In this document: positions 9,173 to 10,110 of the stretch, piece after piece | Layout: every line of letters starts with the position of its first letter | Position numbering within the stretch: position 1 is the first letter of the stretch | Assembly (NCBI RefSeq): GCF_003364115.1 | Contig: NZ_NXLL01000007.1 | Coordinates: 18,373 to 82,372 of the forward strand | Origin: Helicobacter sp. MIT 00-7814 | GTDB lineage: Bacteria; Campylobacterota; Campylobacteria; Campylobacterales; Helicobacteraceae | Direction: 5' to 3' | DNA: 64,000 bases | Position numbers and translations under genes: made by a program | Notes under the pieces: generated by a model | What the model saw: the letters and a program-made list of their open reading frames with translations, nothing else | The model's database searches: none | What the model was told of the DNA's origin: nothing

Positions 9173-10110
9173 ATGCAGTGTAAAATTTGCAAACAAGAAA
9201 CACAAGTCGCTTTTAATGCGAAAATTTTGGGGTGCTATGATGAGCCATTTTATAAGTGCGCGCATTGCGGATTTTTGAGCTCTGGCGAGGCGCATTGGTT
9301 AGATGAGGCGTATAAAGAAGCAATTAATCTTTCAGACACAGGCATAGTTGCGCGGAATCTGCATTTGTATAAAATTGTTGCGTGTGTGGCGTATTTTTTC
9401 TTTGGTTTTAGAAATACGCTTAGCGGGGGGGGGGGCAAAATACCACTTCACAAGATTCTCAAAATAAACATTCTCTAAAAAATCCTCACACAACACAAAC
9501 TTCCAAACAAAAAATTTTACTAGATTTTGGCGGTGGCACAGGATTGCTTGTGCGATTATTGCGCGATAGCGGGATTGAAGCATTTTGGGAGGATAAATAT
9601 TGTCAGAATCTTTTTGCGCGGGGCTTTGAGTGGGAAAGTGGGAATCCGCGATTGCGTGGGCTAGATTCTGTATTTACCCAAGAAAAATTATCAAAACAAG
9701 CCAAAATGCCAACGCCAGAGCTTGCTACAAGTTTTGAAGTGTTCGAGCATTTGCCAAATCCGCTTGAAGAGATAGAATCTATGCTTTCATGTGCGCCAAA
9801 TTTACTCTTTTCTACCGAGCTTTTACCCTCATTTATTCCAAAATCTAGCGGGCAAAATGCGTGGTGGTATTATGGTTTTGCACATGGACAGCATATCAGC
9901 TTTTATTCTCGTGAGAGTTTGGAATTTATCGCTAAGAAAAGAGGTTTATATTTTTACTCTTATGGTGATTTGCATCTTTTTACTACCAAAAAGATTAATC
10001 CGCTTGCTTTTAAGCTTGTGATAAAACTTGCAGGAAGGGGATTGTTTTTGTGGGTGAAAAAAAGATTAGGAAGTAAGACAATGAGCGATCATCTCGCACT
10101 TTTGGGCTAG
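9173..10110 (+). CDS. phase-variable class I SAM-dependent methyltransferase with N-terminal zinc ribbon; currently split by a G11 frameshift (OFF phase)
   Basis: ORF 9173-9478 (CKICK...CAHCG zinc ribbon) stops 14 codons after the G tract; frame +1 is open from 9424 and encodes motif I ILLDFGGGTG continuing into ORF 9544-10110; G12 or G9 would fuse the two. Confidence 0.75.
9425..9435 (+). repeat. homopolymeric G11 tract inside methyltransferase reading frame
   Basis: counted directly: g at 9425-9435. Confidence 0.9.

Follow-up and report, generated by a model that had tools for sequence, protein, structure and literature searches.

Is a bacterial gene that is thrown out of frame by a run of identical nucleotides a gene that has been lost, two separate genes, or one gene that is switched off for the moment? 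This question is raised by positions 9173 to 10110 of a 64,000-nt stretch of DNA (the window) from contig NZ_NXLL01000007.1 of Helicobacter sp. MIT 00-7814, a gut bacterium of macaques. Within these positions, the coding sequences for a four-cysteine N-terminal module and for an S-adenosylmethionine (SAM)-dependent methyltransferase domain lie in frames that are offset across a run of 11 G nucleotides (G11). The original prediction, made from the sequence alone, proposed a single methyltransferase gene carrying a hypermutable poly-G tract and assembled in its OFF state. This proposal is borne out by the conservation of the tract, by polymorphism in its length, by the ratios of nonsynonymous to synonymous substitution rates (dN/dS), and by fusion of the two parts in homologues. 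We consider it highly probable that slipped-strand mispairing turns one methyltransferase gene ON and OFF. The fuller account, in which the poly-G tract is an on/off switch of a class I SAM-dependent methyltransferase that likely serves a surface glycan, is as a whole the best explanation of the locus, and probably a correct one.

The following elements of the window enter the argument, all on the plus strand.

9163-9168 (+): AGGAGG ribosome-binding site, 4 nt 5' of the ATG at 9173, read from the sequence
9173-10110 (+): whole methyltransferase gene, one unit, frameshifted at the tract and full length with G12 or G9
9173-9424 (+): coding region of the N-terminal domain (residues 1-84), a four-cysteine zinc-ribbon-like module and a helix, assigned from invariant residues and an AlphaFold2 model
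9425-9435 (+): poly-G tract (G11), the proposed switch, which when in frame encodes a run of three or four Gly residues; identified from the sequence and from homologous tracts
9436-9478 (+): out-of-frame tail of the 101-aa product of the G11 state, from translation of the open reading frame (ORF), ending with TAA at 9476-9478
9436-9513 (+): linker coding region in the downstream frame (QNTTSQDSQNKHSLKNPHTTQTSKQK), assigned from the alignment and from model confidence
9514-9543 (+): SAM-binding motif I, ILLDFGGGTG
9514-10110 (+): Rossmann-fold class I methyltransferase domain and C-terminal helices, ending with TAG at 10108-10110; assigned from Pfam family PF13489, AlphaFold2 and Foldseek

The upstream ORF begins at the ATG at 9173, runs through the tract and stops at the TAA, and its 101-aa product (9173-9478) carries CxxC pairs at residues 3-6 and 29-32. 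The downstream methyltransferase frame is closed by a TAG at 9421-9423, is open from 9424 and extends to the TAG at 10108-10110. When tract length was varied in silico, G12 yielded a protein of 312 aa and G9 one of 311 aa, whereas G10, G11 and G13 yielded products of 97, 101 and 98 aa, respectively. The tract coordinates, the offset between the frames and the opening of the downstream frame at 9424 are as originally described, and the ~313-aa protein predicted for G12 or G9 is close to the computed lengths. Motif I had been placed directly after the tract; the actual distance is 26 codons, and a hydrophilic linker lies between the two. On the basis of base composition, 0.0025 G runs of at least 11 nt are expected in 64 kb, and the window contains three G or C runs of at least 10 nt. 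Chance does not account for the G11 tract.

Searching a protein database with the restored protein gave 982 matches. More than 100 of the best 120 are ~255-320 aa in length and align to 98-100% of the restored protein. Alignment of 14 of these proteins shows that the four cysteines (C3, C6, C29, C32) are invariant, as are W42, L43, Y47, N52, D55, T56, G57, R61 and N62 of the N-terminal part and the motif I residues D118, G121, G122 and G124. All homologues that are not in the tract-bearing group have the N-terminal and methyltransferase parts joined in one protein, and thus the two parts are not independent proteins. In homologues from other genera (Sulfurimonas, Aliarcobacter and others), nothing is inserted where the N-terminal helix leads into the first strand of the Rossmann fold. 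The Helicobacter proteins carry an insertion of variable length at this point, and the Gly run encoded by the tract stands at its start.

The AlphaFold2 model of the restored protein has a mean predicted local distance difference test (pLDDT) score of 78 and a predicted template modeling score (pTM) of 0.79, with both domains modeled confidently. Block means of pLDDT in the N-terminal domain are 80-96, with a dip near residues 51-56, and beta strands are predicted at residues 9-18, 22-29 and 35-37. The methyltransferase domain is modeled as alternating beta and alpha elements. Residues 84-110, which comprise the Gly run and the linker, have pLDDT values below 50 and are predicted to be disordered. 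Because the tract falls within this loop, changes in its length by multiples of three nucleotides should be tolerated.

Tract length among genomes and selection on the gene

A scan of one genome per species yielded 18 Helicobacter loci. A poly-G run (G7-G14) is present at the homologous position in 16 of them, and the bases that flank it differ between species. The gene is in frame (ON) at four of the 16 tract-bearing loci: H. magdeburgensis (G10), Helicobacter sp. TUL (G10) and two uncultured genomes (both G14). It is out of frame (OFF) at the other 12, of which six are from named species: H. cinaedi (G10), H. zhangjianzhongii (G12), H. equorum (G11), H. marmotae (G10), H. japonicus (G11) and H. 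anseris (G11). The remaining six are Helicobacter sp. 10-6591 (G11), Helicobacter sp. 12S02634-8 (G11), Ca. H. avicola (G7) and three metagenome genomes (G9-G12). The two loci without a tract, in H. aurati and H. muridarum, have an intact gene. At all 12 OFF loci, a change of one G produces an ORF of 260-330 aa, and a second lesion is found at none. The ON fraction (4/16) is no different from the one third that is expected of an unselected three-phase switch (P = 0.34).

H. cinaedi CCUG 18818 (L010) has one A fewer directly 3' of the tract than does H. magdeburgensis (L001), with GGGtaagtg in place of GGGataagtg. This missing A sets the predicted ON register to G8/G11 in H. cinaedi CCUG 18818, compared with G7/G10/G13 in H. 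magdeburgensis. As read from these sequences, the pair shows that the ON register itself drifts between close species.

The original prediction suggested that tract length be compared across isolates, and lengths do differ between genomes that are otherwise identical or ~99% identical. The 101-aa fragment encoded in the window exactly matches one from Helicobacter sp. MIT 00-7814, and an alternative fragment of 98 aa belongs to MIT 99-10781, a macaque isolate (PMC13280779). Across 6711 bp, the MIT 99-10781 contig and the window have 0 mismatches and differ by a single 2-nt gap, at which MIT 99-10781 has G13 and the window G11. Other relatives of the window lineage carry G10 and are OFF. These include L095 (95% nucleotide identity, with eight similar contigs) and L082 and L083 (~89% protein identity), and the Logan protein P0126 likewise implies an OFF allele with G10. 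Within H. japonicus, G11 (OFF) in the type strain contrasts with G10 (ON) in four assemblies at 99.2-99.5% identity. To find further alleles of the window lineage, JGI metagenome contigs were scanned for the pattern of the tract and its flanks, with 0 matches.

Selection on the restored gene was estimated with the Nei-Gojobori method by using three OFF genomes of the window lineage (the window, L083 and L095). For the whole gene, dN/dS is 0.157 between the window and L083, 0.121 between the window and L095, and 0.127 between L083 and L095. In the comparison of the window with L083, the N-terminal part gives 0.13 and the C-terminal part 0.18, and the neighboring DUF455, rhodanese and SLT genes give 0.128, 0.096 and 0.093, respectively. 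Both halves of the gene are under purifying selection. The methyltransferase gene thus shows the constraint of a gene that is expressed, in keeping with reversible switching rather than with decay.

We propose that the locus operates as follows. The gene would encode one class I SAM-dependent methyltransferase, with the four-cysteine domain at its N terminus, followed by the Rossmann domain and by helices at the C terminus. Slipped-strand mispairing at the poly-G tract, within the disordered loop between the domains, would make expression stochastic and reversible. With G9 or G12, ribosomes would read through to give an enzyme of 311 or 312 aa. With G10, G11 (as assembled in the window) or G13, translation would terminate after 97-101 aa, and no methyltransferase domain would be made. 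Helicobacter and Campylobacter lack MutS1/MutL/MutH mismatch repair, and switching is presumably fast for this reason; G9-G11 tracts of C. jejuni suggest, by analogy, a rate of about 1e-4 to 1e-3 per division. The enzyme may methylate a sugar of a surface glycan (lipopolysaccharide, O-antigen or similar), either as a nucleotide-sugar or on the glycan, and switching may thereby alter surface antigenicity or phage receptors.

Enzyme family and probable substrate

Pfam family Methyltransf_23 (PF13489) matches residues 111-260 of the restored protein with an E value of 9.6e-19 (68.1 bits, compared with a cut-off of 27). No other Pfam family matches at E <=0.01, and neither Methyltransf_13 nor Methyltransf_14 is found. 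An NCBIfam scan of the restored protein assigned no family, and when PDB sequences were searched with a profile of the family alignment, none matched at E <=0.01.

At the level of structure, the best PDB matches found by Foldseek are the dTDP-sugar C-3 methyltransferases MtmC, KijD1 and TcaB9, with E values of 1e-8 to 3e-7. Template modeling (TM) scores for these matches are 0.50-0.53 with a large root-mean-square deviation, and ~350 columns are aligned between the 312-residue query and targets of ~400 aa. The next class, small-molecule O-methyltransferases, begins at E 3e-4, which is four orders of magnitude weaker. Like the window protein, TcaB9, KijD1 and MtmC (PDB 4e2y, 5t64 and 4rv9) have a four-cysteine zinc domain at the N terminus and, after it, a Rossmann SAM domain. 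However, they are 9-15% identical to the window protein, the Pfam and PDB sequence searches do not place it in their sequence family, and it is ~100-150 aa shorter when the linker is discounted. They also differ in showing no phase variation and in serving pathways for antibiotic sugars.

The gene contexts of orthologues point toward polysaccharides. The Sulfurimonas orthologue lies within a cluster that includes a Wzx flippase, a family 4 glycosyltransferase (GT4), four GT2 enzymes and sugar epimerases. In the H. cinaedi group, the orthologue is preceded by GT4-GT4-GT9 genes and is located among several other methyltransferase genes and a polysaccharide deacetylase gene; in H. aurati, it follows a GT8 gene. 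Among 124 ORFs that flank 35 non-Helicobacter homologues, the commonest Pfam families are GT4/GT1 (19 ORFs) and NAD-dependent sugar epimerase/dehydratase (15), and GT2 (8), Wzx-type Polysacc_synt (8) and other methyltransferases (7) are also present. This context, coupled with a best fold match to dTDP-sugar C-methyltransferases, suggests that the enzyme is likely a surface-glycan methyltransferase, and supports the analogy with glycan modification that had been drawn originally. To judge from gene context and fold, the target is somewhat more probably a sugar of a surface glycan than anything else; the enzyme may act on a nucleotide-sugar or on a surface polysaccharide, by O- or by C-methylation.

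Competing explanations

Several observations weigh against a reversible switch of a glycan methyltransferase. No ON allele was found in the window lineage: the sampled assemblies all have G10, G11 or G13, and the protein database holds none; the best full-length database match to the restored protein is only 56% identical. Zero ON alleles in ~6-7 independent observations is not, however, significantly different from an expectation of one third ON ((2/3)^6 is ~0.09). In addition, the tract lengths are taken from assemblies, and homopolymers in draft assemblies can be miscalled. Finally, the window gene lies outside any glycan cluster, between DUF455 and rhodanese genes, and its neighbors are DUF455, rhodanese, YggT, a lytic transglycosylase (SLT) and a nucleotidyltransferase (NTP-transferase) gene. 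Because of this location, the argument for a glycan substrate draws on the context of orthologues and on the fold.

The lack of ON alleles in the lineage could be explained if the switch is leaky. RNA-polymerase slippage or ribosomal frameshifting on the G run would then supply some full-length enzyme in genotypes that are nominally OFF, which would explain purifying selection although every isolate of the lineage is OFF. The tracts are long (G10-G14), and the lineage has no sampled ON allele yet shows dN/dS values like those of housekeeping genes. However, there is no direct evidence for leakage, the number of ON alleles is compatible with chance, and slippage at the DNA level already accounts for all the data. 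Transcriptional slippage is best documented on A/T runs. We regard a leaky switch as unlikely. A related scenario, to which we assign a low probability, is that the gene of this macaque Helicobacter lineage moved from the multi-tract glycan cluster to a housekeeping site and is constrained though OFF, either because transcriptional or translational slippage produces useful amounts of enzyme or because selection favors the ON state solely in a host niche that culture never sampled.

The dependence on assemblies raises the concern that the true tract is in frame (for example, G12), that the gene is constitutive, and that the length differences are homopolymer miscalls. Long G runs are prone to error, the two otherwise identical isolates differ at the tract alone, and the G7 call in the metagenome-assembled genome L012 may be such a miscall. 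Against this, a Logan assembly of SRR7643059 is the same as the window except for a 2-nt gap, and it agrees with the NCBI record of MIT 99-10781 on G13. Moreover, the assemblies of 12 of 16 species, from many laboratories, are out of frame, in both the +1 and the -1 direction. In the H. japonicus region, six of seven poly-G tracts vary in length among the type strain and its four close assemblies, yet the G10 allele of the methyltransferase gene is reproduced in all four samples. An assembly artifact is thus quite unlikely, and the tract and its capacity for switching stand even if the called length is wrong.

The position of the gene next to DUF455 underlies a third alternative, which was hinted at originally: that the methyltransferase and the ferritin-like DUF455 protein form a pair for modification of a small molecule or sugar. 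The DUF455 gene (8212-9105, minus strand; Pfam E 7e-65) is divergent from the methyltransferase gene, and the 67-bp region between them (9106-9172) contains a perfect 9-bp inverted repeat. This arrangement is as first described.

9110-9144 (no strand assigned): inverted repeat GCTATTGTA/TACAATAGC, with perfect 9-bp arms at 9110-9118 and 9136-9144, extending to 14 nt at 86%

A common control region with an inverted repeat, and retention of the arrangement in the nearest relatives, are what might be expected of partner genes. The repeat is also unusual for a region of this size, as a perfect one of at least 9 bp occurs in only 64 of 5000 shuffles of the 67 bp. However, it is kept (as 10 bp) only in the nearest relative, L083, and not in L003, L012, L013 or L014. 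The arms overlap a minus-strand -35/-10-like element (TTGTAA-16-TACAAT), but such matches are no commoner than in shuffled sequence. A scan of positions 7900-10300 gave six promoter-like matches compared with 5.0 in shuffles, and no terminators.

The adjacency itself is patchy. A DUF455 gene adjoins the orthologue at only six of 20 Helicobacter loci (L083 of the window lineage, L003, L012, L013 and L014, with a rearrangement in L009), and none is found within 4 kb at 13 Helicobacter loci (L001, L002, L004-L008, L010, L011, L015, L016, L066 and L069). Where DUF455 is not within 4 kb, the orthologue sits among glycosyltransferase and other methyltransferase genes. The family is also absent from the 25 commonest neighbor families of the 35 distant homologues. 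Thus, a functional pair is not supported, and we consider the suggested partnership very unlikely.

A plain pseudogene, in which the frameshift is fixed in a decaying gene and the G run is incidental, would explain why the window and all sampled relatives of its lineage have the gene out of frame, and why the NCBI annotation gives fragments only. The original prediction held that an invariant tract together with accumulating inactivating mutations would indicate such decay. Instead, tract lengths vary, and none of 13 OFF genomes has a second inactivating mutation, although their proteins are only ~50-60% identical. Both halves are constrained (dN/dS 0.12-0.16) as in the intact neighboring genes, the tract is kept in 16 species, and ON and OFF alleles co-occur within one species. 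The pseudogene explanation is therefore strongly disfavored.

The least probable alternative, with next to no chance of being correct, is that of two genes, a small zinc-ribbon protein and an independently translated methyltransferase, which follows the NCBI records of a 98- or 101-aa hypothetical protein and a 198- or 236-aa "class I SAM-dependent methyltransferase" but is contradicted both by the joining of the two parts in every intact homologue and by the want of a usable start, since with G11 the first ATG, GTG or TTG of the downstream frame is a TTG at 9544 that is itself past motif I. This outcome also answers the original concern that the two ORFs might prove to be independently expressed. 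The database models for the C-terminal part (9424-10110 of the window) are frameshift artifacts. One of them, WP_258864642.1 (236 aa), exists only in the G13 allele, with a +1-frame TTG as its start. The model for the window strain, WP_115574546.1 (198 aa), requires an ATT start that has no ribosome-binding site.

Further tracts and known systems

Other homopolymeric tracts are present in the window. A C10 run at 26152-26161 lies 11 codons into a gene at 26118-27723 that has a good ribosome-binding site. With C9 or C12, this gene would encode a polytopic membrane protein of 534 or 535 aa that matches Pfam DUF6056 (E 1e-49), and with C10 as assembled, a stop is reached after 22 aa. It is probably another phase-variable gene that is now OFF. 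An exact look-up of the 485-aa DUF6056 ORF, intended for comparison of this second tract between isolates, found no record.

A further C10 run (G10 on the coding strand) at 8014-8023 is located 47 nt upstream of the GTG start of a gene at 7341-7967 on the minus strand, the product of which has a "nucleotide modification associated domain 2" (Nmad2; E 7e-39). The run is immediately 5' of a CATAAT hexamer that resembles a -10 element, and it is also C10 in MIT 99-10781. Because a change in its length alters no ORF, it is a candidate tract for phase variation by promoter spacing. Positions 5472-7337 (minus strand) encode a 621-aa DUF285 repeat protein with a C-terminal tail that is transmembrane and rich in cysteine. 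Two long internal copies in this gene are 80-85% identical at the DNA level, as seen in secondary BLAST matches. In place of the DUF285 and Nmad2 genes, the relative L083 has a gene for an autotransporter and a 370-aa ORF that has no Pfam match.

Tracts are far denser around the orthologues of the H. cinaedi group (L001, L002, L007, L008, L010, L011, L084 and L094) and of H. japonicus (L016 and L087-L090). There, the orthologue resides in a ~9-10-kb cluster whose genes encode GT4-GT4-GT9, several methyltransferases and a polysaccharide deacetylase. A G8-G17 run occurs approximately every 1 kb, or about one per gene, with up to 10 tracts per locus. Their lengths vary between near-identical genomes, and neighboring genes are split in some samples and intact in others. 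A search of the literature available to the analysis found no description of the window locus or of the equivalent H. cinaedi cluster, and a search on phase variation or homopolymeric tracts in H. cinaedi found nothing relevant.

The window locus adds a well-supported contingency locus for a poorly studied group of enterohepatic Helicobacter of primates, and it corrects a database annotation in which two fragments are listed, one of them dependent on an ATT start. Across much of the enterohepatic Helicobacter group, this methyltransferase gene retains a poly-G tract at a single position in the loop. The ~10-kb glycan-modification cluster of H. cinaedi and H. japonicus is a ready system for combinatorial surface variation in an emerging human pathogen. 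The understanding of phase variation itself is unchanged, and a specialist would expect such loci in this genus. What is added is the conservation of the tract across species, the difference between a clonal pair and a pointer to the dense multi-tract glycan cluster of the H. cinaedi group.

Two sets of known genes invite comparison. The phasomes of Campylobacter include poly-G methyltransferase genes such as Cj0170, "UbiE_3" and several C. fetus genes for SAM-dependent methyltransferases (PMC6321876), and C. jejuni has the poly-G capsule methyltransferase genes cj1426 and CJJ81176_1419 (PMC13317227). Compared by mechanism, these genes resemble the window gene in having an intragenic run (G8-G13) that decides between a full-length and a truncated SAM-dependent methyltransferase. 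Their targets are surface glycans (capsule) or motility-related structures, and they are members of a multi-gene phasome. In contrast, the window gene is solitary and lies outside any capsule or flagellin-glycosylation locus. The position of the tract differs as well. The OFF product of CJJ81176_1419 comprises 145 of 257 aa (PMC13317227), and its tract is mid-domain, whereas the tract of the window gene is at residue 85, in an inserted loop between domains.

Closer in taxonomy is the poly-G hot-spot cluster HCAN_0630-0671 of H. canadensis, which contains the putative methyltransferase genes HCAN_0647, HCAN_0659 and HCAN_0671 with G9-G14 tracts and ranges of length at the level of reads (PMC2823697). 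This cluster, from another enterohepatic Helicobacter, resembles the orthologue-bearing cluster of the H. cinaedi and H. japonicus groups, in which there is approximately one tract per gene. The window copy is outside any such cluster, and no H. canadensis locus is among the 18 Helicobacter matches. By analogy, the window gene would work in the same way as the poly-G methyltransferase genes of Campylobacter and H. canadensis.

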